Shown piece after piece: positions 513 to 18,531 of a DNA stretch of 51,890 nucleotides. Both the position numbers and the translations under genes were made by a program. A model generated the notes under the pieces. That model saw only the letters and a list, made by a program, of their open reading frames with translations, searched no databases and was not told where the DNA came from. Numbering within the stretch: position 1 is the stretch's first letter; every line of letters starts with the position of its first letter. The DNA is from a virus (taxonomy: Duplodnaviria > Caudoviricetes), in IMG/VR virus record IMGVR_UViG_3300010413_000050, positions 1-51,890 of that record; one strand, 5' to 3'.

Positions 513-513
513 G

Positions 514-1281: not shown

Positions 1282-1306
1282 CGCATTTGCGACAAGCTGC
1301 TAGAAC
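1278..1306 (+). promoter_or_regulatory. sigma70-type promoter
   Basis: TTGACG-17 nt-TAGAAC with TG extension and A-rich upstream tract; GAGGAGG RBS and ATG 1329 follow. Confidence 0.6.
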
Positions 1307-1328
1307 CAAAAAAGAGGAGGACTGAACC

Positions 1329-3851: not shown

Positions 3852-3852
3852 G

Positions 3853-4125: not shown

Positions 4126-4126
4126 G

Positions 4127-4381
4127 ATGGAAAACAAAATCGAAGCGACCACGGTCAAGGAGTTCCTGGCCGAGGTGAACGCGAAGACCGAGGAGCTACT
4201 GCTTCAGGCCCTGAAGCTATACGGCAAATCGGACAAGGGCACCGGGTTCGCGCGCGAGTACACGTTCCCAGAATACGCCGGAACGTTCCGCCGCGAGTTT
4301 TGGGTCGGAGACGAGTGCCTGCTCGGTGTGCACATCACGGTCGGCGACGGCAAGGTCACCGCGAGATGGGACGTACGATGA
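4127..4381 (+). CDS. Hypothetical protein
   Basis: GGAGG RBS; MENKIEATTV start. Confidence 0.7.
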   Translation: MENKIEATTVKEFLAEVNAKTEELLLQALKLYGKSDKGTGFAREYTFPEYAGTFRREFWVGDECLLGVHITVGDGKVTARWDVR

Positions 4382-4563
4382 AAACAAGAAAAACACCAGA
4401 GCCGAAGACCGACACCTGCCAGCGGTGCGGCGATGTTCATCCGGAATACAAGCTGAAGTACGGACGCGAGGCGCTCCCCAACGCGAAGAAGGGCGAACCC
4501 AATTCACGCTTGTGTCGAGTTTGCGATCGATGCCGCAAAGGATTTGTGAGGCTGTATAAATGA
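4378..4563 (+). CDS. Small Cys-rich zinc-finger protein
   Basis: CQRC...CRVCDRC; ATGA coupling at both ends. Confidence 0.65.
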   Translation: MKTRKTPEPKTDTCQRCGDVHPEYKLKYGREALPNAKKGEPNSRLCRVCDRCRKGFVRLYK

Positions 4564-5696
4564 CTAAGAATCGATTTCATCCGTTCGACCCCGAGCAGGT
4601 AGAGCTAACCGGCCCTGCCGTCGATAAGCTCGACGAACTGATAAAGAAGCTGCACGCGGTCCTCCATGCGGTATCGGAACTCAACCGCGACAATCGCGAG
4701 ATGTCTGACGCTGCCTGGCAACAGAGCCTTGTCGATGCCGTAGAAGAGTTCAACGCGCAGAACGGGACCTTCTTCGACGAGAACGAAGCTGTCACAGCAT
4801 GGCTACGAGGGCGATTGAAAGAGTGGGCGGAATATATAAAAACGCAAAGCACGGAAAGAGGTGTCGCCATGAGCGAGCGCTGGCTCTGTCCGAAGTGCGG
4901 ATTGCGTCTACCAAAGCCGCATGAATCTACGTTCGCAGTTTGTGACTGTGGAACTAAAATGATCGAGGAGACCGGCGACCTGCAAGGCCGACACATCGGC
5001 GAGTGGAACGCGCTCGCCGAGGAAAACGAGCGGCTCGAATTCGAAATGGCAGAGCTTCGGGCAAGGTTAGGAACAATACGTGCGTGTGCAACTCTCGAAG
5101 AAAGCGAGCAGCGCGAAGTTCACATTTTAAAAGATGCCTTACAGAAGTCCTGTGGTTGCGCACAGGTCGACGACAAAGAGGCAGTCGAGTGCACGGAACA
5201 CGCGGCGATGGGGGAAGAGAACGAGCGGCTAAAAAAGCAGGTGCGCGAGATGGGAGGTGAACCGGACAACTCCGAGCAGGGCGATGCGTTCGTGCGAAAA
5301 CTCATACTACAGAGTCACGAGTTGCTAGAGGAAAACGAGCGGCTAAAGAAAGAACTGCACCGCCATCAAGAACTGTTTGCCCACAAAAACGAAGCCGACG
5401 ACGGCACCGCGCTTCTCATTCACTCCCTACGAGAGCAGATAAACGATCTTGAAGCGAAGCTCGGCTATCCGCCGGTGACGGCACACTGGACGCGCGAGCC
5501 GCCGACGAAGCCGGGGTGGTATCATGTCGTTCGAAGCGCTGGAGGCTTCGGAATCGTGCACGTGACTCAAGCACTAGAGACCAAAGTCACAATTACCACC
5601 ACTGTTATTCAACGTGCTGGAGCTGGAGATATTGCTTGGTTCTGGTCCGAGACCGTGCGCCTGCCCGCCCCGCCGAAGGATGGAGACGATGACTAG
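4560..5696 (+). CDS. Modular hypothetical protein (Zn-ribbon plus coiled coils)
   Basis: 378 aa; CPKCG..CDCG; three EENERL repeats; internal RBS and ATG at 4869. Confidence 0.7.
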   Translation: MTKNRFHPFDPEQVELTGPAVDKLDELIKKLHAVLHAVSELNRDNREMSDAAWQQSLVDAVEEFNAQNGTFFDENEAVTAWLRGRLKEWAEYIKTQSTERGVAMSERWLCPKCGLRLPKPHESTFAVCDCGTKMIEETGDLQGRHIGEWNALAEENERLEFEMAELRARLGTIRACATLEESEQREVHILKDALQKSCGCAQVDDKEAVECTEHAAMGEENERLKKQVREMGGEPDNSEQGDAFVRKLILQSHELLEENERLKKELHRHQELFAHKNEADDGTALLIHSLREQINDLEAKLGYPPVTAHWTREPPTKPGWYHVVRSAGGFGIVHVTQALETKVTITTTVIQRAGAGDIAWFWSETVRLPAPPKDGDDD

Positions 5697-5895
5697 CGAA
5701 CAACTCTATTGGCATTGTGAGTGTGGGAATAACGAGCCAGCACAGCCAGAATACGAGCACTGGGATTCGGAACCATGTTGTCTGTGCGAGAACGGCGTGG
5801 CTCGCGTCGTGACGATTAAAGAGGCCGCAGCATGGGAGCGAGCGATTGCGCTGGGTCATTTGTGGAGGCCCGAGCCGCCGAAGGAGGAGCCATGA
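5689..5895 (+). CDS. Small Cys-rich hypothetical protein
   Basis: CECG...CCLC; GGAG RBS. Confidence 0.6.
   Translation: MTSEQLYWHCECGNNEPAQPEYEHWDSEPCCLCENGVARVVTIKEAAAWERAIALGHLWRPEPPKEEP
5868..5895 (+). repeat. Gene-junction repeat GCCCGAsCCGCCGAAGGAGGAGCCATGA, copy 1
   Basis: 27/28 identical to 8549-8576. Confidence 0.85.
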
Positions 5896-6200
5896 CCGTC
5901 GAAGGGATCAAGGCGATGCTATCTTCTTGCGAGCAGGTGCTCGCCGAGACGAAGAAGGAGCGCGATGGACTACGCGGCGATGTTCAGCGGCTCGTCGAGG
6001 AGAAGGAGCAGGCCCATCGCCTGAACGACAAGCTCGTCGACGAAGTGGCCCTGCTCCGGGAGCGAAACGACAAGCTCGAAAAACTGTTTCGCAAGAAGCA
6101 GCAGTCCTTCGACGTGTTCGAGCTGCTCAAGGAAAACAAACGGCTGAAGAAGCGCGTCGGCGAGATTAATCGACACTATCCTAAAGGAGAACGAAAATGA
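5892..6200 (+). CDS. Coiled-coil hypothetical protein
   Basis: AAGGAGGAG RBS; heptad pattern. Confidence 0.7.
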   Translation: MTVEGIKAMLSSCEQVLAETKKERDGLRGDVQRLVEEKEQAHRLNDKLVDEVALLRERNDKLEKLFRKKQQSFDVFELLKENKRLKKRVGEINRHYPKGERK

Positions 6201-6568
6201 GTAAGAAGAAAAGCGAAGACCTCGAAGAGTGCAATCCTCACGAGGAGAGCTGCAAGTGTGAGCTAACCGAGGAGGAGATCCGCGAGGCGTCGGACGCGCT
6301 CGCGCGGAAGTTCGTCGAGATCGAAAACGCCGAAGCCGAGAAGAAGGAGGTCGCGTCGCAGTTCAAGGCCGACATCGACCGCCTGAAGAACGCCGCGCGC
6401 GAGCTCGCCGCCAAGGTGCGGAACAAGTACGAGTACCGAAAGACGGACTGCGTCGACGTGTTCGACTTCTCGAAGAACGAGGTCCGTACCTACCGCGTCG
6501 ACACCGCCCAGGAACTTCGCAAGCGGACGATGACGGTGAAGGAAAAACAGCGAGAGCTCGACGTCTAG
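6197..6568 (+). CDS. Phage hypothetical protein
   Basis: AAGGAG RBS; charged helical 123-aa protein. Confidence 0.75.
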   Translation: MSKKKSEDLEECNPHEESCKCELTEEEIREASDALARKFVEIENAEAEKKEVASQFKADIDRLKNAARELAAKVRNKYEYRKTDCVDVFDFSKNEVRTYRVDTAQELRKRTMTVKEKQRELDV

Positions 6569-8268
6569 TGGCCTCTCTCCTTGAAACCTTGATGGAGCGC
6601 ACGGGGCAGACGAAGGTCCCGAGGTACGCCAAGGAGGCGTTCGGCTTCCGCGCCGTCGTCCAGCGCTCACAAGAGTTCCAGCGCATCGCCGCGCTTCCCC
6701 GGCGACAGTGGCAGACCGAGCCCTGGCTCTCGAACGTCGTCGAGATAATCAACGACGCCCTGCGCCTTCCGGCCGCCGAGCTCGGCCTGTGGCCGATCCA
6801 ATGCGCGGCGCTTCACGATGCCGTGGTCGAGGGCGGCGCGTTCCTGCCTATCGGCGTCGGCCAAGGCAAAGCGTTTATTTCCATCCTCGCGCCCGTGGCC
6901 ATGGACGCCGAGCGCCCGGTCCTGTTCGTCCCCGCCGACCTGCGCGACCAGACCCGCGAGCACGTCCTGCCGCTCATGCGCAAACACTTCCGGCTGCACC
7001 CGCGCCTGCGCGTGATCGGTTACTCGGAGCTGAGCCTCGCGAAGAATGCCGAGATGCTCGAAGACCTGAAGCCGGACCTCATCGTTCTCGACGAGGTGCA
7101 CTCGGTGAAGAACAAGGGCGCCGGTCGGACGCGCCGGCTCGTGCGCTACTTTCGCGAGCACCCGGAAACGAAGTGCGTCGCGATGTCGGGCACGGTATCG
7201 AACCGGTCGATCAAAGACTTCGCGCACATCGCCGAGTGGTGTCTCAAGACGCGGTCGCCCGTGCCGCGTGCCTGGCAGGAGCTGAGCGACTGGGCGGATG
7301 CTATCGACGAGGGGGTGGACGAGGACAAGCGCGTCGCGCCCGGTGCGCTCGAGGCGTTTTGTCACGAGAACGAGAACGTGAGGCAGGGCTTCCGGCGAAG
7401 GCTTGTCGAGACCCCCGGGGTCGTCGCCTCGGCCGAGCACGACCTCGGCGTGTCGCTGCGTGTGCGGCGGTATCTGATCGAGGTGCCGGCGGCCGTGCGC
7501 GAGGCGCTTTCGAAACTGCGAAACACTTGGGAGACGCCGAACGGCGACATCGTAACCGAGGCCGTGGACCTGTGGCGGCACGCGCGAGAGATCGCCTTGG
7601 GGTTCTGGTATCGATGGGAGCCGCCCGCACCTCGGGACTGGATGAACGCGCGGAGAGAATGGAAGGCGTACGTGCGCGAGAAGCTGAAGCACTCGAAGAC
7701 GCTCGATACCGAGTTACAGGTCTGGAACGATTGCGAGCGAATGCAGGAGGCCCCGGACGAGTGGCACGCATGGGTCAAGGTGCGCGATTCGTTCAAGCCG
7801 AATTCGATCGCCGAGTGGATCGATGATTTCGCCTTGCGGGCGTGCGCGGAGTGGATTCGCGACGGTGGGATCGTCTGGACGTCGCATCGCGCCTTCGGTG
7901 AGCGCCTCGCGAAGCCGAGGTTTTCTCAAGGTCTATACTCGTATTTCGGCGCGGGGACGTCGAAAGAGCTACTCGACTACAATCTGAGCCGCGTCGCGCT
8001 TTCGATCTCGTCACACGGACAGGGGAAAAATCTTGAGCGCTACTCTCGCAACCTGATCGTCGCGCCGCCGTCGAGCGGGAAGACTTGGGAGCAGGTGATC
8101 GGGCGCACGCATCGCGAGGGGCAGGAGGCCGACGAGGTGGAAGTCGACGTGTTTCTTCACGCGCCGGAGCTAGAGGATAGCTTCGCGCAGGCGCGCGCGG
8201 ATGCCGTGTATCTGGAGGACGCGCTCGGCAATCGACAGAAACTAAACTACGCGGACGTCGTAGTGTAG
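6568..8268 (+). CDS. Superfamily 2 (DExH) helicase
   Basis: Q motif LWPIQ; motif I GVGQGKA; motif II LDEVH; motif III MSGT; motif VI QVIGRTHREGQ. Confidence 0.9.
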   Translation: MASLLETLMERTGQTKVPRYAKEAFGFRAVVQRSQEFQRIAALPRRQWQTEPWLSNVVEIINDALRLPAAELGLWPIQCAALHDAVVEGGAFLPIGVGQGKAFISILAPVAMDAERPVLFVPADLRDQTREHVLPLMRKHFRLHPRLRVIGYSELSLAKNAEMLEDLKPDLIVLDEVHSVKNKGAGRTRRLVRYFREHPETKCVAMSGTVSNRSIKDFAHIAEWCLKTRSPVPRAWQELSDWADAIDEGVDEDKRVAPGALEAFCHENENVRQGFRRRLVETPGVVASAEHDLGVSLRVRRYLIEVPAAVREALSKLRNTWETPNGDIVTEAVDLWRHAREIALGFWYRWEPPAPRDWMNARREWKAYVREKLKHSKTLDTELQVWNDCERMQEAPDEWHAWVKVRDSFKPNSIAEWIDDFALRACAEWIRDGGIVWTSHRAFGERLAKPRFSQGLYSYFGAGTSKELLDYNLSRVALSISSHGQGKNLERYSRNLIVAPPSSGKTWEQVIGRTHREGQEADEVEVDVFLHAPELEDSFAQARADAVYLEDALGNRQKLNYADVVV

Positions 8269-8276
8269 GAGAATCC

Positions 8277-8576
8277 ATGGACAGCGTAACAACTACTCGG
8301 GAAACGTTTGACATTATCCATACCAGGGTAAAAGAGATCGAAGCCGAGCGCGACGCCCTAGCCGCCAAGGTCGCCGAGCTTGAAGCGGACAATGAACACC
8401 AGATGCAAGAGCTGTACAAGGCCGTCGAGGAAACAAACAGTTGGATCACTAAATATAATACGCAGCTTGAGCAGGTGCGGGTAGCTTTACGAAAAAAAGG
8501 GCAGTGGGATTACGATACGTTACTAGAAATCAAGGCCATCCTATCCAAGCCCGACCCGCCGAAGGAGGAGCCATGA
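8277..8576 (+). CDS. Coiled-coil hypothetical protein
   Basis: AGGAG RBS; lower GC. Confidence 0.65.
   Translation: MDSVTTTRETFDIIHTRVKEIEAERDALAAKVAELEADNEHQMQELYKAVEETNSWITKYNTQLEQVRVALRKKGQWDYDTLLEIKAILSKPDPPKEEP
8549..8576 (+). repeat. Gene-junction repeat, copy 2
   Basis: 27/28 identical to 5868-5895. Confidence 0.85.
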
Positions 8577-8887
8577 GCACACTTGATAATTGGCTAGCAA
8601 TAACAACGCATTACTTTGAGATTCCAGAGGGATATGAAATTGCAAATCCGCTAAGTGAAAAAGTTGAGCAGTTAGAGAAGAAACTACGAAAAATCACGAA
8701 TGATGCAGCCTATTACCGTCGTGTTCTGCGAGGCATTTTTGGAGCGCGGTTTAAGGGTGCCGCAAAAAAAGCATTCGACAAGCATTATATTCGTATGACC
8801 GATAACGACATCAACAAATTAGTGGACGAGGTGGAGGCAGTTTTCCCCAAGATCGAGGGCATCGGTGATTATGAGCCGCAGGACTGA
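8573..8887 (+). CDS. Hypothetical protein, AT-rich
   Basis: RBS inside the junction repeat; AT-rich codons. Confidence 0.7.
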   Translation: MSTLDNWLAITTHYFEIPEGYEIANPLSEKVEQLEKKLRKITNDAAYYRRVLRGIFGARFKGAAKKAFDKHYIRMTDNDINKLVDEVEAVFPKIEGIGDYEPQD

Positions 8888-8917
8888 CAAGCCCGCCCCA
8901 CCAAAGGAGGAGCCGCG

Positions 8918-9340
8918 TTGAACGACCTCGATCTCATGCGATTGTGGCTAACCTACGTGCCATCGATCTACGCGTGCCCGGTATGCCGCGAGGCGTCGCC
9001 GACCCGGAACACCGACGAGGGCGTGTACTGCTTTCCGCACTGGTCACGGCTACGCCCGTGCGACGAGTGCGGAAGACCTTCGACTTCGTGGATGAAGATC
9101 GACGGCGAGAAGAAACGGCTTTGCCGTCGCTGCATCATCGGCGACGACCTGCCGCCGCAAGTACACTACCGCACGGCCTCGTCGCTCGCCGCGGCGCGGG
9201 AAAAAGCGATTGGAAATTTTAGCCCGATTACCGGGCGACCGAGAAAAGAAAAAGCTTGTCAGAATTCCGACAGCGTGCTACCGTCGTCGGGCAAACAACG
9301 GAACCGCCTTCGGGCGCAAAACAAGGAGACAGGAAAATGA
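8918..9340 (+). CDS. Cys-rich (multi-Zn-finger) hypothetical protein
   Basis: GGAGGAG RBS, TTG start; CPVC, CFPH, CDEC, CRRC. Confidence 0.65.
   Translation: MNDLDLMRLWLTYVPSIYACPVCREASPTRNTDEGVYCFPHWSRLRPCDECGRPSTSWMKIDGEKKRLCRRCIIGDDLPPQVHYRTASSLAAAREKAIGNFSPITGRPRKEKACQNSDSVLPSSGKQRNRLRAQNKETGK
9256..9284 (+). promoter_or_regulatory. sigma70-type promoter
   Basis: TTGTCA-17 nt-TACCGT with TG extension and A-rich upstream tract, ahead of the SSB-like gene. Confidence 0.45.
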
Positions 9341-9927
9341 ATCTACCGAAAGGATGGCCAGGCGGCCAGCAGCAACCCGACCCGCAGGTCACTCAGCAGT
9401 CCCCGCCGTACGCGGCCGCGCCGCAGTCGCAACAGGACGAGGACTTCTACTCGCGCATTGCGAACGCCGAAGACCGTGACAGGAGAATCACGCGCTACCC
9501 GATACCGGGTGCGTATCCGGTGCTACTCGTCGACTTCGTGAAGATGATCCGCACTCGGAAGGACGAGGACTTCTTCGTCGCCGAGTTCGAGATTCTTCAG
9601 AGCAAGGTCGCCGAGCGCCCCGCCGGAACGCGCATGTCGTGGATGTGCAACCTCAAGCACGACTCGTCCCCGCGAAACATCAAGGAGTTCATCTGCGCAC
9701 TCATGGCGGTCGACAAGGACGCGGTCACGCCCGAGGCGGTGAAGTACGCCTGCGGGCCAGACAATCCCTGCCACGGTCGGCTCGTGCGATTGGAGGCGAG
9801 CGAGATCACGACGAAGGCCGGAAACCCGTTCACGGTCTGCGACTGGTACACGCTCGGGGACGAGGTGCAGGCGAAGGTCGTTGAGCTCCGCAAGGCCGCG
9901 GGGTTCGACGTCGACATACCGTTCTAG
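9337..9927 (+). CDS. Putative single-stranded DNA-binding protein
   Basis: Replication-cluster position; beta-rich core; acidic-aromatic tail DVDIPF like SSB C-termini. Confidence 0.6.
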   Translation: MNLPKGWPGGQQQPDPQVTQQSPPYAAAPQSQQDEDFYSRIANAEDRDRRITRYPIPGAYPVLLVDFVKMIRTRKDEDFFVAEFEILQSKVAERPAGTRMSWMCNLKHDSSPRNIKEFICALMAVDKDAVTPEAVKYACGPDNPCHGRLVRLEASEITTKAGNPFTVCDWYTLGDEVQAKVVELRKAAGFDVDIPF

Positions 9928-9929
9928 TC

Positions 9930-10205
9930 ATGGGAGATATGGCAGACTGGACGATGGTCGATCTTTGGGATGACCCGGATTTTCAAGACGCCGAACGGGA
10001 GCCCGTCGTGATAGATTTCGTCCGCGTCCTGCACGAAACCGAAGCGGCCTGGAAGCTACTGCTGACCGAAGCCGACGTGTTCGAACGGATTGCGGGAGAC
10101 TCGGACAATGGTGTCTGGTTTCCGAAATCGCAGTGCGTTCTCAAAGATGACGAGTGCCTGATTGTCGTGCCCGCGTGGCTCGCGATCGAGAAGGGTCTCG
10201 TCTAA
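9930..10205 (+). CDS. Small acidic phage protein
   Basis: VWFPKSQC...VPAWLAIEKGL; contiguous in the operon. Confidence 0.7.
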   Translation: MGDMADWTMVDLWDDPDFQDAEREPVVIDFVRVLHETEAAWKLLLTEADVFERIAGDSDNGVWFPKSQCVLKDDECLIVVPAWLAIEKGLV

Positions 10206-10265
10206 CCATTCAACCGAAAGGAGGCCGGGGAAAGCGAAACCCATCGGTTGCAAAAACAGGATCTC

Positions 10266-10298
10266 GGCGCGGGTCGGGCTCGATACCCGGCTCGCGCC
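10266..10298 (+). ncRNA. 13-bp hairpin with T-loop-like heptamer (minihelix-like)
   Basis: GGCGCGGGTCGGG-CTCGATA-CCCGGCTCGCGCC in an intergenic gap. Confidence 0.3.
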
Positions 10299-10300
10299 CC

Positions 10301-10386
10301 GGGCGCGGCGAAGCTAGCGTGCGTGATGCTGGCGGGCATGTACCAAGCCTTACTTACGACCGGGTTCGAATCCCGGACGCGCCCCA
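10301..10386 (+). ncRNA. tRNA-like RNA (non-canonical cloverleaf or pseudo-tRNA)
   Basis: Acceptor-like GGGCGCG/CGCGCCC, two internal stems, perfect T-arm CCGGG-TTCGAAT-CCCGG, ends ...CCA; no canonical D-arm, anticodon ambiguous. Confidence 0.45.
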
Positions 10387-10402
10387 AGGAAAAAAAAGAA
10401 AC

Positions 10403-10705
10403 ATGAAAAAAACGACAGGGAAGTCTCCTCCTGAAAAAATGGAGAACGAACGACTGAGAAGGCTAGTCTGGAAATGGTTCGAGTGGGAGGGCTTAACGGT
10501 AAAACAGGCTGAGGGGTTCTATAGCTATGCTAAAAAAATATGCAACGATTGCTACCGAACAGAGCGTCTTGCCGATCTTGAAGAGCGTCACATGAAGGTG
10601 CGTGAACATTGCGAGATAATGAAACGCGGTCACGAACACCAGAGACATAGCATCAACGTGCGGCACGCCGATGCGATTTTACATGTCCTTGACAGAAAAA
10701 AATGA
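10403..10705 (+). CDS. Hypothetical protein
   Basis: MKKTTGKS start; ATGA-coupled to the polymerase. Confidence 0.6.
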   Translation: MKKTTGKSPPEKMENERLRRLVWKWFEWEGLTVKQAEGFYSYAKKICNDCYRTERLADLEERHMKVREHCEIMKRGHEHQRHSINVRHADAILHVLDRKK

Positions 10706-12642
10706 AACCCGTTATCGCCATCGACACCGAGACGCACCGCTTCGGCCCAGGCCGCATGGCACCCCCGGTGGTCTGCCTCTCATGGGCGTTCGACAACAAG
10801 TCGGGCCTGCTCGTCGGTCGCGATAACATCCGCAGGTTTCTCGAAGACGTTCTCAAGCAATCCGCCGAGGGGGCGCTCGTCATCGTCGGTCACTACATGG
10901 CCTACGACATGGCCTGCCTCGGCGCGACGTTCCCCGATCTCCTGCCCGTCATCCTCTGGGCATACGACCGCGACGGCGTCGCCTGCACCGTCAACCGCGA
11001 AAAACTTTGCGACATCGCCGCCGGGTGCTTCCGCTTCGCTATCGACGCCGAAGGCAACCAAACGAAAAATGACTATGACCTCGCCGACCTCGTGCGCCTG
11101 CACTTCGGCGAGACGCTCGCGAAAGGCGAGGACACCTGGAGGCTTCGGTACGGCGAGCTCGATGGCGTGCCGCTCGACCAGTGGCCCGAGGACGCGAAGG
11201 AGTACGCGATCAAAGACGCGGTCGAATGCCTCCGACTATATAACGCACAAGAGGAAACCAAGCGACGCTTGAACTACTTCATACCGACCGAGTTCGACGA
11301 GGTGCGCGCGGACTTCGCGCTCAAGCTCATGTCGACCTGGGGCATCCGTACCGACCCGCCGCGCGTGCTGTCGTTCTGGAACGAGACCGCCGCGCGCATG
11401 GCCGAGCTTGCCGAGGGGCTCGTCGCCTGCGGGCTCGCGCGCGAGAAGAAGCCGAGCAAGCAGACCTCGCTATTCGAAGAGGAGCAACCCGACCGCCTTT
11501 CGCTTCCGGCCGTGAGCCAGATCATGGACGCGACTCGCCGTCTCGTGAAGGACACCTACCGAGGCGATCCGCCGTTGACGCCGAAAGGATCTATCTCGAC
11601 GGCGGCCGAGGTGCTCACACGCTGTCGATCGAAGGAGCTGCAAAAACTCGTCGAGTACAAGAGTTTAGAAAAGAACGCCTCGACGTTCCTGTCCAAATAT
11701 TTCGAGCCGGTCATCCATGCGAGGTTCAACGGCATCGGCGCGGCGTCCGATCGCACGTCCTGCGCGAAGCCGAACTTGCAGCAGCTCCCGCGCGCGCCGG
11801 GATTTCGAGAATGTTTCATCCCGCGCTCGGGTCGGGTGTTCTGCTCGACGGACTTCGACACGCAGGAGATGAGAACGCTCGCGCAGTCGTGTCTCGACAT
11901 CTGCGGGAAGTCGCGGCTTGCCGAGCGCTATCGGGAGAACGCGCAGTTCGACCCGCACCTCGAGTTCGCCGCGGCGCTTGCCGAGGTCTCGCGCGAGGAA
12001 GCGCTTCGGCTGAAGGAGGCGGGAGACAAACGGATAAAGGATTTTCGGCAGCAGTCGAAGTGCGCGAACTTCGGCCTGCCGGGAGGGCTCGGCGCCGAGG
12101 GGTTCGTCAGCTACTCGTGGTCGAGCTGGGGCGTGAAGATTTCTCAGTTCCGCGCGGAGGAGCTGAAGCGGGAATGGTTTCAGCAGTGGCCCGAGATGCA
12201 CTCGTACTTCGAGCATGTGCGGAACGTCATCGGCTGGAAGCGCGGATCGCTCGGCACGATACAGATTCCGCAGTCAGGGTTTCAGCGCGGCGGTGTCGGG
12301 TACACCGACGCCTGCAATAGTTATTTTCAGACCCTCGCGGCGCACTGCTCGAAGCGGGCGTTGTGGGAGGTGACGAAGCGTTGCTATGGCGTGTATCACT
12401 CGGCGCTCTACGGATCGCGGCCTGTGGTGTTTGTGCATGACGAGGTGATCACGGAGACGCCGGAGGAGATGGGCCACGAGGTGGCGGTCGAGATGCCGGT
12501 GATCATGATGGAGTCGATGAACAGGTACACGCCGCAGATTCCGAGCATGGCGTCGGCGGTACTGATGGCCCGATGGAGCAAGGGCGCCGAGCAGGTGCGC
12601 GATGAAAGAGGGAGAATGATACCGTGGAGAGAAACCATATGA
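10702..12642 (+). CDS. DNA polymerase family A with 3'-5' exonuclease domain
   Basis: Exo I IDTET, Exo II HYMAYD, Exo III YAIKDA; PNLQQLPR; motif A DFDTQEMR; motif B RQQSKCANFGLPGG; motif C VHDE. Confidence 0.95.
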   Translation: MKPVIAIDTETHRFGPGRMAPPVVCLSWAFDNKSGLLVGRDNIRRFLEDVLKQSAEGALVIVGHYMAYDMACLGATFPDLLPVILWAYDRDGVACTVNREKLCDIAAGCFRFAIDAEGNQTKNDYDLADLVRLHFGETLAKGEDTWRLRYGELDGVPLDQWPEDAKEYAIKDAVECLRLYNAQEETKRRLNYFIPTEFDEVRADFALKLMSTWGIRTDPPRVLSFWNETAARMAELAEGLVACGLAREKKPSKQTSLFEEEQPDRLSLPAVSQIMDATRRLVKDTYRGDPPLTPKGSISTAAEVLTRCRSKELQKLVEYKSLEKNASTFLSKYFEPVIHARFNGIGAASDRTSCAKPNLQQLPRAPGFRECFIPRSGRVFCSTDFDTQEMRTLAQSCLDICGKSRLAERYRENAQFDPHLEFAAALAEVSREEALRLKEAGDKRIKDFRQQSKCANFGLPGGLGAEGFVSYSWSSWGVKISQFRAEELKREWFQQWPEMHSYFEHVRNVIGWKRGSLGTIQIPQSGFQRGGVGYTDACNSYFQTLAAHCSKRALWEVTKRCYGVYHSALYGSRPVVFVHDEVITETPEEMGHEVAVEMPVIMMESMNRYTPQIPSMASAVLMARWSKGAEQVRDERGRMIPWRETI

Positions 12643-12899
12643 CCCTGAAAGAAGTGGCGGAGAGAATGGAAGGAACAGATGAGATTGTCACCGCCGTAGT
12701 GATTCCGATTCTTTTACAATCCAAAGAAGGACATCCTCGATTTGGTGAGGTCGTTTGCCCCTCGAACTTTGACGTAGAAGAAGTAGTGTCGCTGCTGCTT
12801 TCGTGCGCAGCTTGCCTAGTAGTCCGCGGGGGCGGTCCACCATTCGCAGCGGTTTCGGCGTTGTTCGGTCACCTCGAAAGGTTTGAAGAGGTGTATTAG
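12639..12899 (+). CDS. Hypothetical protein
   Basis: ATGA overlap with the polymerase stop; abuts the next gene. Confidence 0.55.
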   Translation: MTLKEVAERMEGTDEIVTAVVIPILLQSKEGHPRFGEVVCPSNFDVEEVVSLLLSCAACLVVRGGGPPFAAVSALFGHLERFEEVY

Positions 12900-13363
12900 T
12901 GCAAGGTGTCTTGATAGCCATCGACCCCGGGCGCGTGCTCGGCATCGCCGTGTTTCGAAACACGATCCTGCTCGACATCGGCGTCATGACGGCGCCGCGC
13001 ATCCGCGATCTTCACTACGGCCTATTTCAGTTTTTCAAGCGGCACGAGCCCGCGGCGGCGATTATCGAGGTGCCGCAGGTGTACCGACAGCGCAAGCAGA
13101 AGGGCGACCCGAACGACCTGATCGACGTCGCGGTAGTCGCCGGTGTCGCCGGTGCGGTCGCCGCGCCGTGGTGCGAGCCGCTATTCATCAAGCCGCACAT
13201 CTGGAAAGGGAGCAGGCCGAAGGACGTCGACAACGAGTACACGCTAAAATGCCTGAACGATATTGAGCGCGCGATCGTCGACCGCGCGGGGCTTGGCAAG
13301 ACGAAAGGCCATAACGCGATCGACGCCATCGGGATCGGGTTGTGGGCGCTGGAGAGGAGATAG
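12899..13363 (+). CDS. RuvC-like Holliday junction resolvase
   Basis: IAIDPG, IIEVP, HNAIDAIGIG acidic motifs of the RNase H fold. Confidence 0.85.
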   Translation: MQGVLIAIDPGRVLGIAVFRNTILLDIGVMTAPRIRDLHYGLFQFFKRHEPAAAIIEVPQVYRQRKQKGDPNDLIDVAVVAGVAGAVAAPWCEPLFIKPHIWKGSRPKDVDNEYTLKCLNDIERAIVDRAGLGKTKGHNAIDAIGIGLWALERR

Positions 13364-13570
13364 ATGTCACCATTACCCTATGTAGACCCCGCGCGCACGC
13401 GGCGACTCCTACGTCTGCTCAAGCGGCCAAGGACCGTGGCCGAGCTTGCCGTGCGACTGAACGTCTCGCGGCGCACGGTTGAGCGCTACCTGCGACGGCT
13501 CGAGGAGGGCGGCGCGCGGCTAGTCCGCGTCGGCACGTCCTGCCCGTCGCGCTACCAGGTGATCGAATGA
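13364..13570 (+). CDS. Winged-HTH DNA-binding protein (HTH_11-like)
   Basis: TVAELAVRLNVSRRTVERYLRRL. Confidence 0.85.
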   Translation: MSPLPYVDPARTRRLLRLLKRPRTVAELAVRLNVSRRTVERYLRRLEEGGARLVRVGTSCPSRYQVIE

Positions 13571-14058
13571 GAGCAATAACCATTTGGCCCGAATGGGTTT
13601 GGGCGATCGAGAACCTCGACAAGAACGTGGAGAACCGCACATGGTATCCGCGGTCTGAATTTGGTATATGGCCCAGCCGTCTCGCTCTACATGCGGGGAA
13701 GTACATCGGCGGCCGTCCGGGCCGATGCTCTGCCGACGAAGGCGTGAGCGGCGTGATACGCATGGCCGAGCGCGCGGGATGGAAAGTGGAGATCGTGCCC
13801 GGACATGCGGTGCGCTTCAAAAAAGATCAGAACGAGGTTTGGCTCGACAATTTTGCAGTTATTCGCGGGGCCGTCGTCGCGGTCGCTCGCATCGAGAAGG
13901 TAGATCGATGCTATCCAAAACCATGGGCCGCTCCCGGCCAATGGCAGTGGCACCTGACAGATATCACGCCTCTCGCCAAGCCGGTTCCGTGTAGAGGGCA
14001 TCAAAAAATTTGGAGCCTGCCGCCCGACGTAGAGGCGGCGGTGAGAGCACAGCTATGA
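13567..14058 (+). CDS. ASCH domain protein
   Basis: MRAITIWPEW..KNVENRTW..LALHAGK..PVPCRGHQKIW. Confidence 0.85.
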   Translation: MRAITIWPEWVWAIENLDKNVENRTWYPRSEFGIWPSRLALHAGKYIGGRPGRCSADEGVSGVIRMAERAGWKVEIVPGHAVRFKKDQNEVWLDNFAVIRGAVVAVARIEKVDRCYPKPWAAPGQWQWHLTDITPLAKPVPCRGHQKIWSLPPDVEAAVRAQL

Positions 14059-14318
14059 AGCTCGGCTACTTCAACCTATCGCAAAAGATCATCGACCGGA
14101 TGCTACGGTCGGAGGCGTTCGCCGCGGCCGTCGGTCGCGCGGTCCGCGAGCACGCGTTACGATTCGCGACCGCCGAGGCGGCCCTGAACCACGGGGTTCG
14201 ACTCGCGAGCCAGCACCTCGCCGAGGGCGTGGCGTTCTCCGTCGTCACCGAGCACGACAAAAACCGGATGCCGAGAACCGCGATCATGCTAATCGACGAG
14301 GGCGGCGGCTGCCTGTAG
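14055..14318 (+). CDS. Hypothetical protein
   Basis: ATGA coupling; 87 aa. Confidence 0.6.
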   Translation: MKLGYFNLSQKIIDRMLRSEAFAAAVGRAVREHALRFATAEAALNHGVRLASQHLAEGVAFSVVTEHDKNRMPRTAIMLIDEGGGCL

Positions 14319-14350
14319 TGGCATGCCGCTTGCAGCAGAAAAGGAGTGCG

Positions 14351-14626
14351 ATGAAAGACCCGCTCGACATACGAAACAACCGGCGGGGACTGGGCTGGAT
14401 TGCAGTATTCCTGGACCCCGACCCTGAGAGTTTCGACGGTCAGGCGTGCGCGCGCCTTCGAGAATCGATCCTCCGCGCGTCAGCCGCCGCTGAGCGCCCG
14501 TCAATCGCCGCCACGGCCCGAACCCTGGGTATCGGCCGCGACCGCCTGAGGCGCCTCCTGAGCGCCCTCAGGCTAACCCCCCAAGACCTGCGCAATTATT
14601 GCGCGGCTATGCAAAACACTTCATAG
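14351..14626 (+). CDS. Stand-alone Fis-type (HTH_8) DNA-binding protein
   Basis: AAGGAG RBS; SIAATARTLGIGRDRLRRLL resembles the C-terminal HTH of NtrC/Fis proteins; no AAA+ domain. Confidence 0.7.
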   Translation: MKDPLDIRNNRRGLGWIAVFLDPDPESFDGQACARLRESILRASAAAERPSIAATARTLGIGRDRLRRLLSALRLTPQDLRNYCAAMQNTS

Positions 14627-14770
14627 GACTAAAGGGGCGGAATGATTAGAGTTCTGGGAATCGCGCAATTATTGCGTAGTAAAATTGCGCAACTATTGCG
14701 TGGTCCGGTTTCGGGGCGAGGACATGCGGCGCGAAATCATTAGGCTTTTTGGGGCGCGCGATAGTCGCGC
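14590..14770. promoter_or_regulatory. Array of palindromic operator/enhancer sites GCGCAA-N3-TTGCGY
   Basis: Copies at 14590-14604 (perfect), 14663-14677 and 14687-14701; degenerate copy at 14756-14770. Confidence 0.8.
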
Positions 14771-14774
14771 GGTT

Positions 14775-14790
14775 TGGCACGGCGATTGCA
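14775..14790 (+). promoter_or_regulatory. sigma54 (RpoN) -24/-12 promoter
   Basis: TGGCACGGCGATTGCA matches TGGCACG-N4-TTGCW exactly; intergenic, upstream of RBS and ATG 14833. Confidence 0.8.
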
Positions 14791-14832
14791 CTCTCTAAAG
14801 GCATGAACGCGACACACAAAGGAGAGAGCACG

Positions 14833-15084
14833 ATGTCACAGAAAATTTTCTGCCCTATCGATTTCGAGTTTTCTTGGACCGACAACTGGTACGAGTGGGA
14901 CCGTGAGGCCGCGCACAAGGCCGCTTTGAAGGCGCGCAACGACCTCGCCAAGAGGATGAAGGACGCGGGACGTTTGGTACAGAAATTCTCGCTCAAGGAT
15001 CAACTCGTGCGAAGGGGCGGAATTGGATCGGGTCGCCCAGACGTCGAGTTCTTTTGCAACTGCTATGGCGTCAATTTCAGCTAA
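14833..15084 (+). CDS. Hypothetical protein, first gene after the sigma54 promoter
   Basis: AAAGGAGA RBS; MSQKIFCPIDF. Confidence 0.75.
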   Translation: MSQKIFCPIDFEFSWTDNWYEWDREAAHKAALKARNDLAKRMKDAGRLVQKFSLKDQLVRRGGIGSGRPDVEFFCNCYGVNFS

Positions 15085-15128
15085 CCCTGACCGGCTTCGC
15101 GGGGGTTCGACTCCCCCGCAGGGTTCCA
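15083..15128 (+). ncRNA. tRNA-like minihelix (acceptor stem + T-arm + CCA)
   Basis: AACCCT/AGGGTT stem, GCGGGGG-TTCGACT-CCCCCGC arm, then CCA; D and anticodon arms replaced by about 10 nt. Confidence 0.45.
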
Positions 15129-15144
15129 AGAGAGGAGAGAACTC

Positions 15145-15417
15145 GTGAAACCCTGGGAGATAGAGAACCGCGTTCGGCGCGCCTGCGAAGAGCACGGCCT
15201 CGACCCGCCGCCGCCGATACTCGGCGACGTGACCGAGTGGCTACTCGCCGCGTTCGAAACGGCGACACGCGATCTCGGGTTCAAGATCGAAGACGCCCAG
15301 ATTCAGCAGTCCCGCGCCGAGGACGAGACCTCGAATCTCGAATACGAGGTCCACGATCTCAAGACAGAAATCCGCGAACTGAAAAACCAGATCGTAAGAC
15401 TGAAGGAGAAGCCATGA
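15145..15417 (+). CDS. Hypothetical coiled-coil protein
   Basis: GAGGAG RBS, GTG start. Confidence 0.7.
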   Translation: MKPWEIENRVRRACEEHGLDPPPPILGDVTEWLLAAFETATRDLGFKIEDAQIQQSRAEDETSNLEYEVHDLKTEIRELKNQIVRLKEKP

Positions 15418-15851
15418 GCGAACGCATCGACAACATAGATGTTCTCGACTGGTCTGCGCATACTGCGAAAGAAAGAAAAATGATTCGTCGCCTGCTTGAC
15501 CGACGCAAGTACCTCCTGACGCAGTCTCAAAAATATGCGGACGGAAAACGGACCTACTATCGGGATGAAGTGATGGCTATCGAGTGGGCGCTTTTGATGG
15601 CCATCGAAAACAAGGACTTCGCCGCGCAGCTTGTGCGGGTGCGGGAGATAGCGGAAAGAAGCGATAAGTACGGTAAGCAGTCTCTTGCTATCAGAGAAAT
15701 CTTGGCCCTTTTGAATGGGCTCACTTGTTGTAAGGGAGAATACAATCACTGCCCTGAATGTGGTGGTCACAGGCGGCTAGATGAAGATACGTGGGTTTGT
15801 GATCATTGTCGCAACAACAAGCACCTGCCCGCCCTCGCCGAAGGAAGGTAG
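15414..15851 (+). CDS. Hypothetical protein with C-terminal Zn-ribbon
   Basis: AAGGAG RBS; CPECG..CDHC. Confidence 0.7.
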   Translation: MSERIDNIDVLDWSAHTAKERKMIRRLLDRRKYLLTQSQKYADGKRTYYRDEVMAIEWALLMAIENKDFAAQLVRVREIAERSDKYGKQSLAIREILALLNGLTCCKGEYNHCPECGGHRRLDEDTWVCDHCRNNKHLPALAEGR

Positions 15852-15854
15852 CGA

Positions 15855-16199
15855 ATGAGAATCTGGGACATACCGGTCGCCGACCTCTGCCGTGCGCACC
15901 TACTCGGCGAGCACCGCGAGCTCCACGCGATCTGGTCCATCTACCTCAACAACAAAACCGGCTACCGTAACCACCCCGAGGTGAAGCGCTGGCAATTCTG
16001 TCTTCAGAAACTAGACGACCGACACGAGGAACTGAAATCCGAAATGTCGAAACGCGGGTACTCCCATCAAAGCGAGCTGGCTCCGATCACCTACTGCGAT
16101 TTCACATGGTTCAAGAAGCTACCGGAGATCATCACCCCGATAGACGAACAACGCGCGCACCTGCTCGCCAAAGCCTGCGGGTGCTGCAAGGAGGACTGA
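15855..16199 (+). CDS. Pyrimidine dimer DNA glycosylase / T4 endonuclease V family
   Basis: MRIWD..LCRAHLLGEHRELH..GYRNHPEV..EMSKRGYSH. Confidence 0.85.
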   Translation: MRIWDIPVADLCRAHLLGEHRELHAIWSIYLNNKTGYRNHPEVKRWQFCLQKLDDRHEELKSEMSKRGYSHQSELAPITYCDFTWFKKLPEIITPIDEQRAHLLAKACGCCKED

Positions 16200-16200
16200 C

Positions 16201-16383
16201 ATGGCAAAGCGAAAGAAGAAAACCACACTCAGCGACAAGAAACGCAGCAAGCAGACAGCCCAATACAAAGAGGGCGGCGGAAGCTCGAAGTACGCGAAGA
16301 AGAAAGCGTACCTTCGTAGTCAGCGCGTGGACGGCGTTGAGCCATGGGGGTTCGATTTCCCCGAGCCGAAGCCGTGGAAGTAG
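16201..16383 (+). CDS. Small basic protein
   Basis: GGAGG RBS; Lys-rich. Confidence 0.7.
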   Translation: MAKRKKKTTLSDKKRSKQTAQYKEGGGSSKYAKKKAYLRSQRVDGVEPWGFDFPEPKPWK

Positions 16384-16396
16384 GAGGACTGACAAA

Positions 16397-17026
16397 ATGA
16401 ATATACCGAAAGACATCGACGTCCGCGCGGCGTCGGAGCCCGCGGTCACCGAAGCCGAGCAGGTCAACGATCTCTGCATCGGCTTCAACGTCACCAACAA
16501 CGACAGCCTCAAGGCCGCAGTGAAGTGGATCGCCGAGATCAAAACCCACGCCACGACCATCGAGGAAAAACGCCGGTCGTTCGTCGACCCAATCCGAGAA
16601 TCGATCGACCGCATCAACAACTTCTTCAAGCCCGCACTCGACCGCCTCTCAGACGCCGAGCGCACCCTGAAAAACAAGGTGAGTAGCTACACGATCGCCG
16701 CCGCCGTCGAGCGCGACCGACTGCTCGCCTCCATTGACCCGAACGCGGGCGTCGATGAGAAGTGCGGCATCCTCGCCAAAGCCGATACCTTCGCCCCTCC
16801 CAAGATCCCGGGCCTCGCCTTGCGCGAGTCCTGGCAAGGCAAGGTCACCGACCCCGCCGCCGTCGTGAAATGGGCGGTCGAGAGTGGCCGGCTCGAGCTC
16901 CTGAACGTCGACCCGAAGGCGCTCGTCGTGCTGGCCAGGGCCGCCGACCGCGACCCGGAGATCCCCGGCTTCAAAGCCTCCCGCGTTCGCTCGGTTGCAA
17001 TTACCCCTTCGAAGGTGCAGAATTGA
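16397..17026 (+). CDS. Helical phage protein (coiled coil)
   Basis: GGAGG RBS; IEEKRRSFVDPI..INNFFKP pattern. Confidence 0.7.
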   Translation: MNIPKDIDVRAASEPAVTEAEQVNDLCIGFNVTNNDSLKAAVKWIAEIKTHATTIEEKRRSFVDPIRESIDRINNFFKPALDRLSDAERTLKNKVSSYTIAAAVERDRLLASIDPNAGVDEKCGILAKADTFAPPKIPGLALRESWQGKVTDPAAVVKWAVESGRLELLNVDPKALVVLARAADRDPEIPGFKASRVRSVAITPSKVQN

Positions 17027-17050
17027 TCCGTCAGTTCTCCCTTTTTCCTT

Positions 17051-17133
17051 GGCCCCGGGCCGGAGCGTGGACACCGCGAGCATGCCCCCGCCCGTCACTT
17101 CCGACCATAGCACTTCGGTCCGGGGCCTTCTTT
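17051..17133 (+). terminator. Long-loop GC-rich stem followed by a T-rich tract (terminator or structured RNA)
   Basis: 14-bp stem 17051-17064/17114-17127 with G-U pairs, then TTCTTT. Confidence 0.4.
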
Positions 17134-17135
17134 AA

Positions 17136-17165
17136 TTGACGCACCTCGTTCGAAAAACGTATACT
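17136..17165 (+). promoter_or_regulatory. sigma70-type promoter for the transglycosylase
   Basis: TTGACG-18 nt-TATACT; GGAGGAGG RBS downstream. Confidence 0.65.
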
Positions 17166-17204
17166 TGAAAAATCCCAACACAGAACCAAGGAGGAGGTAC
17201 CGCT

Positions 17205-17849
17205 ATGCGGAATAAAAATTACAGACACTACCTTGAAGTGATCGTGCTCCTGACTGCGATCGTCTTCGCCGTGTGGTTGCTGTGGTACGTGAACACGGCA
17301 CACTCGGCCGAGCTGCCGCATCCGATCGAGCGCGCGATTCTCCACGTCGTCCACTACGGCATCCCCGCCCATGACGTCAAGCCGAGACCGAACCACCCGC
17401 TGACCAAAGACCCCGCGAGAATGGCCGAGCTCGTGTCGGCTATCGACGAAGCGAGCCGTGCCTACGACATCGACCGCCCTGGATTCTTCATGGTCTCCAT
17501 CGCCTTCAGAGAAAACTCGTTCTTGCCGGACGACGTCGGCGGACTCGGCGAGCGCGGCGTGTTTCAGATGATCCCCGCAGTCGCGGCGCGTGTGCATGAC
17601 GAGATCGATAACCGTTGTACGCTGGACACTGTCCGCGGCTCGGCGTTCTGCGCGGCCGCTTGGCTCAACCACTGGCGCCAAAAATGCGGGAGCCTGCGCG
17701 GGGCGTTCGTCGTCTACGCGACCGGACAGAAAGTCTGTAAACCGTACTCGGAAAAAACGCGATGGGTTGTTCGAGACAGATTTGGAATCGCGAAAAAACT
17801 CAGACGGGCCGTAGCTCCGTCCATGGCAGACCCGCGAGCTCGGCTTTGA
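17205..17849 (+). CDS. SLT-type lytic transglycosylase with N-terminal membrane anchor (SAR-endolysin-like)
   Basis: Hydrophobic N-terminal helix; IAFRENSF catalytic Glu; GERGVFQM motif. Confidence 0.8.
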   Translation: MRNKNYRHYLEVIVLLTAIVFAVWLLWYVNTAHSAELPHPIERAILHVVHYGIPAHDVKPRPNHPLTKDPARMAELVSAIDEASRAYDIDRPGFFMVSIAFRENSFLPDDVGGLGERGVFQMIPAVAARVHDEIDNRCTLDTVRGSAFCAAAWLNHWRQKCGSLRGAFVVYATGQKVCKPYSEKTRWVVRDRFGIAKKLRRAVAPSMADPRARL

Positions 17850-18531
17850 TCTGAAGCTCGCTCATGAACGGGAACCGGTAGCGCAGGTGTCCCTTCCTCG
17901 CCTTCCCCCTCAACTTCTTGACCCACGCCTTCCAGTACTCCGACCCCGGCGCCACGAGCCACGCGCCGCCGACCCCGCCCTTGTTCAAGTCCTCCACCAT
18001 CGAGCCAAGAAACCTCACCACGAAGGGCTGCATCGACGTATGGCCGGCGAACTTGTGCGCGTCGACCTGGCATCGCTTCACGCCCCACCGCACGAGCTCA
18101 TCGCGCAAGAGGTCGGCGAAGCCGCCGTCCGTGCCCGGGCCGACGTCCTTGTGGTTACGGTCTCGGACGTCGTTCTCGGCCGCGAGGCAGGCGTACAGGA
18201 CAACGCGCAGGTCTTGCGAGCAGCTCACCGCGAGCCGGCCGGCGAACTCGGGAATATCGTCACGGTTGAACCCGAACTGAATCCCGTCCGGCCAGCCGTG
18301 CCCGAACAGCGCGAGGCAGTCGAGCGGCTCGTTTCGGTTCGCCGCGTGGATGGCTTCGAGCGTCCTCCGCATCCGGACCGCCTTCGGCATCCCGACGAGC
18401 GGCATTCCGACCACGCGGTCCTTCGGGACGTCGTGCGTCCGGGCGAACGCCTTGGCCTCGGGCTCGAACGCCCCGGTCGCGTCCGACTTCCCGGGCGTGT
18501 TCTTCGCGCTGTACAGAACGAGCGTGTTCAT
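17800..18531 (-). CDS. Putative clan CD (caspase/CHAT/DUF4347-like) cysteine peptidase
   Basis: LALFGHG and VVLYAC give a His-Gly/Cys dyad after hydrophobic strands; start MNTLVLY is ATGA-coupled. Confidence 0.6.
   Translation of the reverse strand: MNTLVLYSAKNTPGKSDATGAFEPEAKAFARTHDVPKDRVVGMPLVGMPKAVRMRRTLEAIHAANRNEPLDCLALFGHGWPDGIQFGFNRDDIPEFAGRLAVSCSQDLRVVLYACLAAENDVRDRNHKDVGPGTDGGFADLLRDELVRWGVKRCQVDAHKFAGHTSMQPFVVRFLGSMVEDLNKGGVGGAWLVAPGSEYWKAWVKKLRGKARKGHLRYRFPFMSELQIKAELAGLPWTELRPV

Follow-up and report, generated by a model that had tools for sequence, protein, structure and literature searches.

The window, by which we mean the whole 51,890-bp stretch of DNA that was analysed, is a complete virus genome with direct terminal repeats and belongs to an uncultured marine-sediment phage. 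Replication and accessory genes occupy the plus strand and include, besides a family-A DNA polymerase, those for a PD-(D/E)XK nuclease, a helicase, a RuvC-like resolvase, an HTH_11 protein, a pyrimidine-dimer glycosylase and an SLT lysozyme; the minus strand carries myovirus-type structural genes, with portal and terminase. No tyrosine integrase was found in the phage genome, and a search for tRNA genes as a host clue found none in the phage. Within the plus-strand block we examined two candidate sigma-54 promoters, P_A and P_B, a set of palindromes, P1 to P4, the gene of a 91-residue HTH protein and the operon that follows, laid out as listed here.

352-17849, plus strand: replication and accessory genes
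10702-12642, plus strand: family-A DNA polymerase, in the replication and accessory block
14319-14334, plus strand: P_A, second candidate sigma-54 promoter, TGGCATGCCGCTTGCA (TGGCAT-N5-TTGCA, one mismatch), predicted start about 14345
14351-14626, plus strand: HTH-only protein of 91 residues, Fis/NtrC DNA-binding-domain type, with neither receiver nor AAA+ domain
14590-14604: P1, NmpR-type site, perfect GCGCA-N5-TGCGC, GCGCAATTATTGCGC, within the 3' end of the HTH gene
14663-14677: P2, NmpR-type site, one mismatch (last base), GCA-N5-TGC core intact
14687-14701: P3, NmpR-type site, one mismatch (last base), core intact
14756-14770: P4, degenerate copy GCGCGATAGTCGCGC, ending 4 nt 5' of TGGCAC
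14775-14790, plus strand: P_B, candidate sigma-54 promoter, perfect TGGCAC-N5-TTGCA, TGGCACGGCGATTGCA, predicted start about 14801
14791-14796, plus strand: CTCTCT, just 5' of the predicted P_B start, possible insulator
14833-17026, plus strand: downstream operon of five open reading frames
14833-15084, plus strand: operon open reading frame
15145-15417, plus strand: operon open reading frame
15417-15851, plus strand: operon open reading frame, Cys-rich
15855-16199, plus strand: operon open reading frame, pyrimidine-dimer glycosylase
16397-17026, plus strand: operon open reading frame, phrog_10477
17113-17125: terminator-like hairpin, 3' of the operon open reading frames
17800-51888, minus strand: myovirus-type structural genes, portal and terminase

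By blastn, positions 13500-15500 had no match among GenBank phages. The sole related phage found, L002, has a PolA 52% identical to that of the present phage; it is devoid of the entire module and in the corresponding position carries TTGACA-N17-TATATT, a sigma-70 promoter of textbook form. Among sequencing runs, the window DNA was complete in one marine-sediment run, probably its source, and partial in runs from other sediment and mangrove studies; none of the matched runs carrying it was an RNA run.

Sigma-54 promoter motifs and palindromes

P_B is the sole zero-mismatch occurrence of TGGCAC-N5-TTGCW on either strand of the 51.9-kb phage. Base composition predicts 0.047 perfect matches per window, and one was present in 4 of 400 Markov-1 resamples. 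This is the consensus -24/-12 promoter that a preliminary description, made from the sequence, had placed at 14775-14790; the coordinates hold, and the consensus is perfect. P_B is intergenic, with its final base 43 nt 5' of the ATG at 14833 and in the same orientation, and the ribosome site serving that ATG, AAAGGAGAGAG, lies downstream of the predicted start. P_A, which is absent from the preliminary description, overlaps the 3' end of the upstream open reading frame and ends 17 nt 5' of the HTH-gene ATG. Its predicted start, near 14345, falls inside the ribosome site of the HTH gene, which would leave a leader of about 6 nt without a ribosome site. Both promoters have the GG and GC dinucleotides ten bases apart in TGGCAC-N5-TTGCW (mismatches to the full motif: P_B, 0; P_A, 1). 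Two or more matches with at most one mismatch occurred in 21 of 100 shuffles of the window.

The MFE and centroid folds of a read-through RNA both pair the hexamer CTCTCT (14791-14796) with AGAGAG in the ribosome site (14818-14828); in an RNA that starts at 14801 the pairing is not formed. Insulation of sigma-54 promoters is described in the accessible part of 10.1101/086108, and the hexamer may fit that concept as far as it is set out there. The total fold energy of the leader RNA was not better than that of shuffles, and the insulator reading is for this reason a weak point.

P2 and P3 are separated by 9 nt, or 24 bp from start to start, and the successive start-to-start spacings from P1 to P4 are 73, 24 and 69. 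P3, P2 and P1 lie 73, 97 and 170 nt, respectively, from the TGGCAC of P_B; with the start taken as 14801, the centres of P1 to P4 fall at -204, -131, -107 and -38. The preliminary description had reported palindromes at about -205, -130 and -107 with a degenerate copy abutting -24, and these were found. A palindrome search allowing at most one mismatch returned 8 in the window against a mean of 2.06, a count reached by 0 of 100 shuffles. The looser NmpR pattern, again with at most one mismatch, is not enriched across the whole window (9 against 5.8 expected). The sigma-54 motifs and palindromes cluster within 470 bp, all in one orientation. P4 could be a weak or repressive site. An 11/13 repeat noted earlier at 14637 and 14731 is indeed present, but not above chance (3 occurrences at up to two mismatches, 3.14 expected).

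Natural variants were sought by comparing four runs at 80% likeness or more. The contig that we call X4 (record 18; another study; about 94% identical) differs at 39 letters over 14231-14835, of which 38 are listed; none of those 38 lies in P1, P2, P3 or P_B, and the one more could. Over 14580-14835 the listed differences are 18 substitutions and one inserted G. The four elements make up 61 of these 256 nt, and all 18 substitutions fall outside them (0.762^18 = 0.0075), with differences as close as 1-2 nt to P1 and P3 (14588, 14606 and 14686). Conservation in relatives, put forward at the outset as a check, is thereby seen in a variant from another study: the flanks vary, and no listed substitution touches P1-P3 or P_B. 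In P4, 14766 C>T turns the right half into TGCGC, nearer the consensus. P_A has the perfect consensus in X4: 14324 T>C turns TGGCAT into TGGCAC, and the three remaining listed changes (14326, 14327 and 14329) are confined to the N5 spacer. A further variant, X3, whose contigs have a depth below 5 and many differences beyond those listed, shares 14324 T>C (depth 2.7). Its record 12 has no P3 substitution among the differences listed, position 14686 differing there as in X4, and its record 13 has 0 differences over 14777-14830.

The palindrome in Myxococcota and the NmpR consensus

According to the accessible part of PMC11841059, the oxygen-sensing NmpRSTU relay of Myxococcus xanthus has NmpR as its NtrC-type activator, which acts at low oxygen. 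EMSA and lacZ fusions place NmpR at GCGCA-N5-TGCGC, mostly in pairs of sites, 5' of sigma-54 promoters (PMC11841059). The hypoxia-induced regulon described there includes a CBS gene heading the nmpR operon, the operon of nmpU (protoglobin kinase), a USP gene, a P-type ATPase gene with cbb3 oxidase genes, and pilR, with the mxan_4236/nmpR operon among the NmpR-dependent sigma-54 promoters. The phage form of the palindrome, GCGCAA-N3-TTGCGC, is a subset of this consensus as given in PMC11841059, from which P1, P2 and P3 deviate by 0, 1 and 1 positions with their GCA-N5-TGC cores intact. The site rule of that source is at least two copies of GCGCA-N5-TGCGC, each with at most two deviations and a perfect GCA-N5-TGC core, and the phage region agrees with all five genome-search rules in its accessible part (values 9, 73 and 43 bp). 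The 9 bp between P2 and P3 is not a spacing of the NmpR-bound promoters recorded there, which have 14-15 nt (5 of 7), 5 or 24; at other spacings, several of the predicted sites were unbound (PMC11841059).

A scan for pairs of palindromes 1-31 nt apart, with each prokaryote species represented by one genome, returned at least 127 stretches. Among the matches listed, most belong to cyanobacterial repeat families and six are single-copy Myxococcota matches. In two Alphaproteobacteria the palindrome sits in the spacers of sigma-70-like promoters (12 of 80 listed matches examined). Five Myxococcota genomes contained 39 perfect palindromes against 12 for the reversed control, and 6 of 15 Myxococcota loci had a GG/GC-anchored sigma-54 motif (at most two mismatches) within 100 bp. 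A strict pattern with TGGCAC...TTGC gave 0 matches in the five genomes and was relaxed for a larger count. Of 401 Myxococcota genomes, 54 contained the relaxed form, GCGCAANNNTTGCGC-N{20,70}-TGGC-N8-TGC, with 66 matches in all, against 3 matches of its reversed control; across 301 Verrucomicrobiota genomes the pattern and its control matched 3 times each, one of the three pattern matches being L204, the MAG that led to the choice of that phylum. In the 66 Myxococcota matches the gap from palindrome to promoter core was 28-32 nt in 16, 40-44 nt in 25, 69-70 nt in 5 and other in 20, so 41 lie at 28-32 or 40-44 nt, against 73, 97 and 170 nt for the phage sites. The 66 are not independent events, because many members of the 40-44 nt group represent one orthologous promoter shared by related genomes.

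At one Myxococcota locus the palindrome and a sigma-54 motif lie upstream of a protoglobin histidine kinase gene; at another they are followed by a CBS gene and then by a gene for a REC-AAA+-HTH_8 activator, and Usp and P-type ATPase genes occur near further palindrome loci. Judged by gene content, these contexts reproduce the NmpR regulon as published in the accessible part of PMC11841059. Looking for the palindrome beside activator genes of the suspected host had been proposed beforehand: in Myxococcota it adjoins both activator genes and sigma-54 promoters, and it equals the NmpR site in that part of the source.

Other host clues come from the terminase and from base composition. The best Myxococcota match to the phage terminase had 41% identity, with 16 of 401 genomes at E<=1e-10, and the best Verrucomicrobiota match 33%, with 8 of 301 genomes. 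A search of the ESM Atlas with the terminase gave viral clusters only, without a host clue. At 60%, the G+C content of the phage is below the 62-75% of the Myxococcota loci. The Myxococcota-type host suggested at the outset finds support by comparison, namely in the pattern counts in two phyla and in the terminase, and is on this footing a putative assignment.

The 91-residue HTH protein

The gene directly upstream had been described as encoding only a Fis-type HTH, a statement that stands by fold and profile and not by Pfam. No Pfam family matched the protein at E<=0.01 (best, HTH_28, E 0.025), and HTH_8 (PF02954) was not found even at E<=10, by hmmscan or in six frames. A search of 1.84 billion representative proteins yielded only three real homologues; a putative fourth, P0003, was rejected as a low-complexity repeat protein. 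A word-indexed protein search returned the query itself only. A candidate relative of the gene in viral contigs, the locus L001, proved to be a false match on checking, and searches with P0002 in viral and metagenome contigs gave word-level false matches, for example to pyruvate:ferredoxin oxidoreductase.

The AlphaFold model of the protein, built on the four-sequence alignment A1, has a mean pLDDT of 76. In a structure ranking by a method other than Foldseek, ranks 1-5 were all Fis-type with Z scores of 5.8-6.1: NtrC4 (4fth), Pseudomonas aeruginosa Fis (6m10), NtrX (5m7n), NtrC1 (4l5e) and the DNA-binding domain (DBD) of another sigma-54 activator; TetR-type HTHs scored 5.5, within 1 of these. 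Foldseek against the PDB gave nothing at E<=0.001, with Fis in the top row at E of about 1, and a PDB profile search placed PrrA (1umq) second at E 0.17. In six frames of the 401 Myxococcota genomes, the A1 profile had weak matches in 45, among them the unpublished genome G200, on which no conclusion depends; the best ten of these matches are, by eye, C-termini of frames with a GNVREL-type sigma-54 activator motif. By hhalign, A1 matched 14 activator DBDs at 97.5% probability, ten of the 14 having been chosen by A1 itself, and four NmpR-like DBDs found independently through the palindromes at P = 1e-4 over 40 columns in the HTH register. Five viral records with palindrome arrays were searched for an A1-family HTH, and none was found.

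In the X4 variant, the HTH reading frame has 13 synonymous and 6 non-synonymous changes (a stop codon read as Gln counted), where 27% synonymous would be expected at random. This excess argues for a genuine gene that is subject to purifying selection. With GRDRLRRLLSAL as its recognition helix, the phage protein departs from the NmpR-like proteins, which have SVRKIQYRLKEY there; shared specificity is therefore not implied, and what speaks for the idea that the protein may compete for the sites is its fold class. The DBD-only protein could act in feedback by competing for these sites, could be architectural, or could be a regulator of something unrelated.

Proposed activation by a host regulator

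Sigma-54 RNA polymerase is silent without an AAA+ activator, and NtrC-type enhancers can act from either side of a promoter. The preliminary description saw no AAA+ activator in the genome, and profile searches agree: in six frames of the complete record, the phage has 0 matches to PF00158 (Sigma54_activat), a search that was positive in 14 of 14 control genomes, and 0 to PF04552, the profile for sigma-54 itself. With no AAA+ activator on the phage, promoter opening would need an NtrC-type activator of the host, and since the sites are those of a host activator, a host NmpR-like protein would be an economical source of activation for both promoters. On balance we think it likely, from the sequence, that both phage promoters are activated by such a protein, the host being probably a member of the Myxococcota. 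From the same evidence we infer that the promoters probably depend on sigma-54 and the sites probably bind NmpR, and that the host and the signal sensed are probably those given here.

In the proposed mechanism, 14319-14832 would be an enhancer-dependent sigma-54 control region borrowed from an oxygen-limitation regulon of the host. Host sigma-54 RNA polymerase would wait in closed form at P_A, before the HTH gene, and at P_B, before the operon at 14833-17026. A host NtrC-type activator, for which the best candidate is the NmpR-like response regulator of a Myxococcota host, would bind P1-P3 and open both. The P1-P3 cluster is downstream of P_A and upstream of P_B, an arrangement open to enhancers that are usable from either side. 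In M. xanthus, NmpR is phosphorylated once the protoglobin kinase NmpU loses oxygen; under such host control, the operon genes, including the UV-damage glycosylase, would be expressed only upon the hypoxia signal of the host. That a host activator turns on the operon had been proposed before, and comparison with the accessible NmpR site data and with the variants, through site match and conservation, respectively, speaks for it. The same proposal called the arrangement a phage decision circuit. As no integrase was found, conditional expression of genes is a better reading than a switch between lysis and lysogeny.

We also considered, as a doubtful extension, that the phage both reads and rewires host oxygen signalling. 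Phosphorylated NmpR would fire P_A and P_B in hypoxia, and the 91-residue protein would then occupy GCGCA-N5-TGCGC enhancers of phage and host alike. Occupancy of the phage sites would produce a self-limiting pulse and occupancy of the host sites would shut down the host hypoxia regulon. The protein would in that case be a free-standing copy of an activator DBD, acting as an anti-activator by DNA-site decoy and not by protein-protein contact.

Three other explanations bear on the same elements. The palindromes may instead be operators of the phage's own 91-residue protein, working as an autoregulator or repressor with no host activator and with the sigma-54 motifs silent or otherwise fired; we hold this to be rather unlikely, while noting that it is compatible with activation by the host if both proteins bind the sites. 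The HTH gene adjoins the sites, with P1 inside its 3' end, and the model predicts the dimeric Fis/NtrC-DBD fold type, which reads dyad sites. The 24-bp step from P2 to P3, which is not among the spacings in the accessible account of NmpR, is similar to the 22-24-bp arrays in which other phages carry this palindrome for proteins of their own. The sites nevertheless match the consensus of a known activator, tied to Myxococcota sigma-54 promoters by 66 matches to 3, and the recognition helix differs from that of NmpR. From what is established for this family, moreover, a DBD-only protein cannot open a sigma-54 promoter, yet both promoter motifs are kept or improved in the variants.

Those maintained motifs are left unexplained if the palindromes are origin iterons for a replication initiator, with sigma-54-like motifs that are fortuitous or that serve only in transcriptional activation of the origin, a possibility that we consider improbable. 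Tandem GCGCAA-N3-TTGCG arrays (22-24 bp) do lie inside lambda-O-like initiator genes in three viral contigs, in a Phage_rep_O or HTH_36 gene beside DnaB, and the phage cluster lies where the replication module ends, close to the cumulative GC skew maximum; that maximum, however, coincides with the switch in gene strand, no O-like initiator is encoded at or near the sites, and no AT-rich unwinding stretch was noted by eye. The irregular spacing (73, 24, 69), with its single 24-bp pair, also differs from a lambda-type array. Chance assembly of a sigma-54-like word and palindromes in a GC-rich phage could draw on the shuffles that yield at least two sigma-54 matches and on the near-expected, window-wide count of the loose NmpR pattern. 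It appears very improbable given the rarity of a perfect sigma-54 match, the palindrome count that no shuffle reached, the clustering in a single orientation and a variant in which neighbouring bases change and no listed X4 substitution falls in P1-P3 or P_B.

Phages have generally been described as using sigma-70-type host promoters, sigma factors of their own or polymerases of their own. A full-text literature search returned no paper with a phage promoter dependent on host sigma-54 together with a host enhancer-binding protein. The nearest reports, in their accessible parts, concern a putative phage sigma-54-like protein (PMC7693777) and a phage AAA+ protein without GAFTGA motif or HTH (10.64898/2026.10.06.757011). 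The class of NmpR/sigma-54 enhancer promoters is known; its occurrence on a phage without an activator is not described in the searchable literature. If activation by a host NmpR-like protein is correct, part of a phage programme would be tied to host oxygen limitation as sensed by a protoglobin kinase, through a site whose activator, NmpR, has, according to the accessible part of PMC11841059, already been purified and assayed. The NmpR regulon would then extend across Myxococcota, the sites would offer a sequence-based host predictor for Myxococcota sediment phages, and the region would amount to a compact, orthogonal, hypoxia-responsive promoter cassette.

The closest known counterparts are the NmpR promoters of M. 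xanthus, which have the dyad, its presence in at least two copies, the -24/-12 promoter and the orientation all as in the phage, the comparison being with the consensus in the accessible part of PMC11841059 and not with individual site sequences. The phage differs from them in having one site cluster between two promoters, AT-rich spacers and sites farther from the promoter, and in that the element is on a phage, a word that the same part of PMC11841059 mentions 0 times. The 91-residue protein has Fis and NtrC-family DBDs as its top five structural matches, from which its model is set apart by one more helix at the C-terminus and by an N-terminal part that differs. In the classical NtrC-glnAp2 system, tandem dyads lie about 100-140 bp upstream of a sigma-54 promoter and the activator acts at a distance, from either side. 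The phage region resembles this layout but for the activator gene, which is not on the same replicon: the regulator would come from another genome.

Variable cargo and 3' limit of the P_B operon

The sigma-54 promoter P_B, predicted at 14775-14790 (+), is followed by an operon whose genes, across 14806-15851, vary between natural variants. Comparison of the variant contigs showed that two contigs from sequencing run X3 (depth below 5) retain the promoter and leader and carry other sequence beyond 14806 or 14830, and that runs X4 and X5 have 438 other letters in place of 15417-15836. On this comparison, the P_B control region is less variable than the genes it is predicted to drive. The far end of the operon bears two elements:

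17113-17125, terminator-like hairpin
17136-17165, sigma-70-like promoter TTGACG-N18-TATACT, after the hairpin and ahead of the SLT gene

The latter is the sole sigma-70-like promoter within 12500-18500, and the succession of hairpin and promoter marks the 3' boundary of the P_B operon.

Upstream of the sigma-54 module, the phrog_3193 gene (13567-14058) varies by presence or absence. It is missing from one X3 contig, in which 13566 is fused directly to 14055, and the related phage L002 (PolA 52% identical) likewise lacks it.

A fused ORF in the head module

One further ORF lies immediately upstream of the capsid genes:

41169-44768 (-), single 1199-aa ORF with ATP-dependent DNA ligase, uracil-DNA glycosylase and XkdF-type S78 protease domains

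This three-domain fusion is unusual for a head-module gene.

The palindrome with sigma-54 elements in bacterial genomes

The palindrome of the window, GCGCAA-N3-TTGCG(C), accompanies sigma-54 elements at two bacterial loci, among others:

L204 (G410:C301:1214-4285), Verrucomicrobiota MAG, a pair of perfect palindromes of the same sequence, GCGCAAGAGTTGCGC, with 16 nt between them
L197 (G361:C7:280000-286000), one palindrome between a divergent gene pair

The L204 pair lies 42 nt ahead of TGGCACAGCAAATGCA and a small secreted-looking ORF, and is the sole convincing case of palindrome plus sigma-54 element among 301 Verrucomicrobiota genomes; gene transfer could account for it, as could an error in the binning of the contig. 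At L197, the first gene encodes a 446-aa sigma-54 activator with AAA+ and HTH_8 domains and no receiver, and the second a pyridine-nucleotide-disulfide oxidoreductase with TGGCACGGTCCCTGCT. From this layout, the same dyad may be used by a second type of activator.

The same dyad in other settings, and the related phage

Three IMG/VR contigs (L215, L216 and L217) carry two to four GCGCAA-N3-TTGCG dyads with a 22-24-bp period within Phage_rep_O or HTH_36 genes, with DnaB helicase genes adjoining the L215 and L217 arrays; all three arrays look like lambda-type origin iterons. Among the matches listed (L010-L089), several filamentous cyanobacteria (Oscillatoria, Spirulina, Nostocaceae and Oscillatoriales MAGs) hold many copies of the tandem dyad, frequently at contig ends, which look like a dispersed repeat family. 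The dyads of L024 (Phaeospirillum) and L027 (Marinicaulis) are flanked by -35-like and -10-like hexamers, such as TTGAAT-N16-TAAAAT, an arrangement that is, as judged from sequence, a repressor-operator layout; the L024 dyad, GCGCAATTATTGCGC, is identical to P1, the perfect NmpR-type palindrome of the window.

Unlike the window, with its sigma-54 module, L002 has TTGACA-N17-TATATT at the equivalent place (10688-10716), 3' of an HTH_11 gene.
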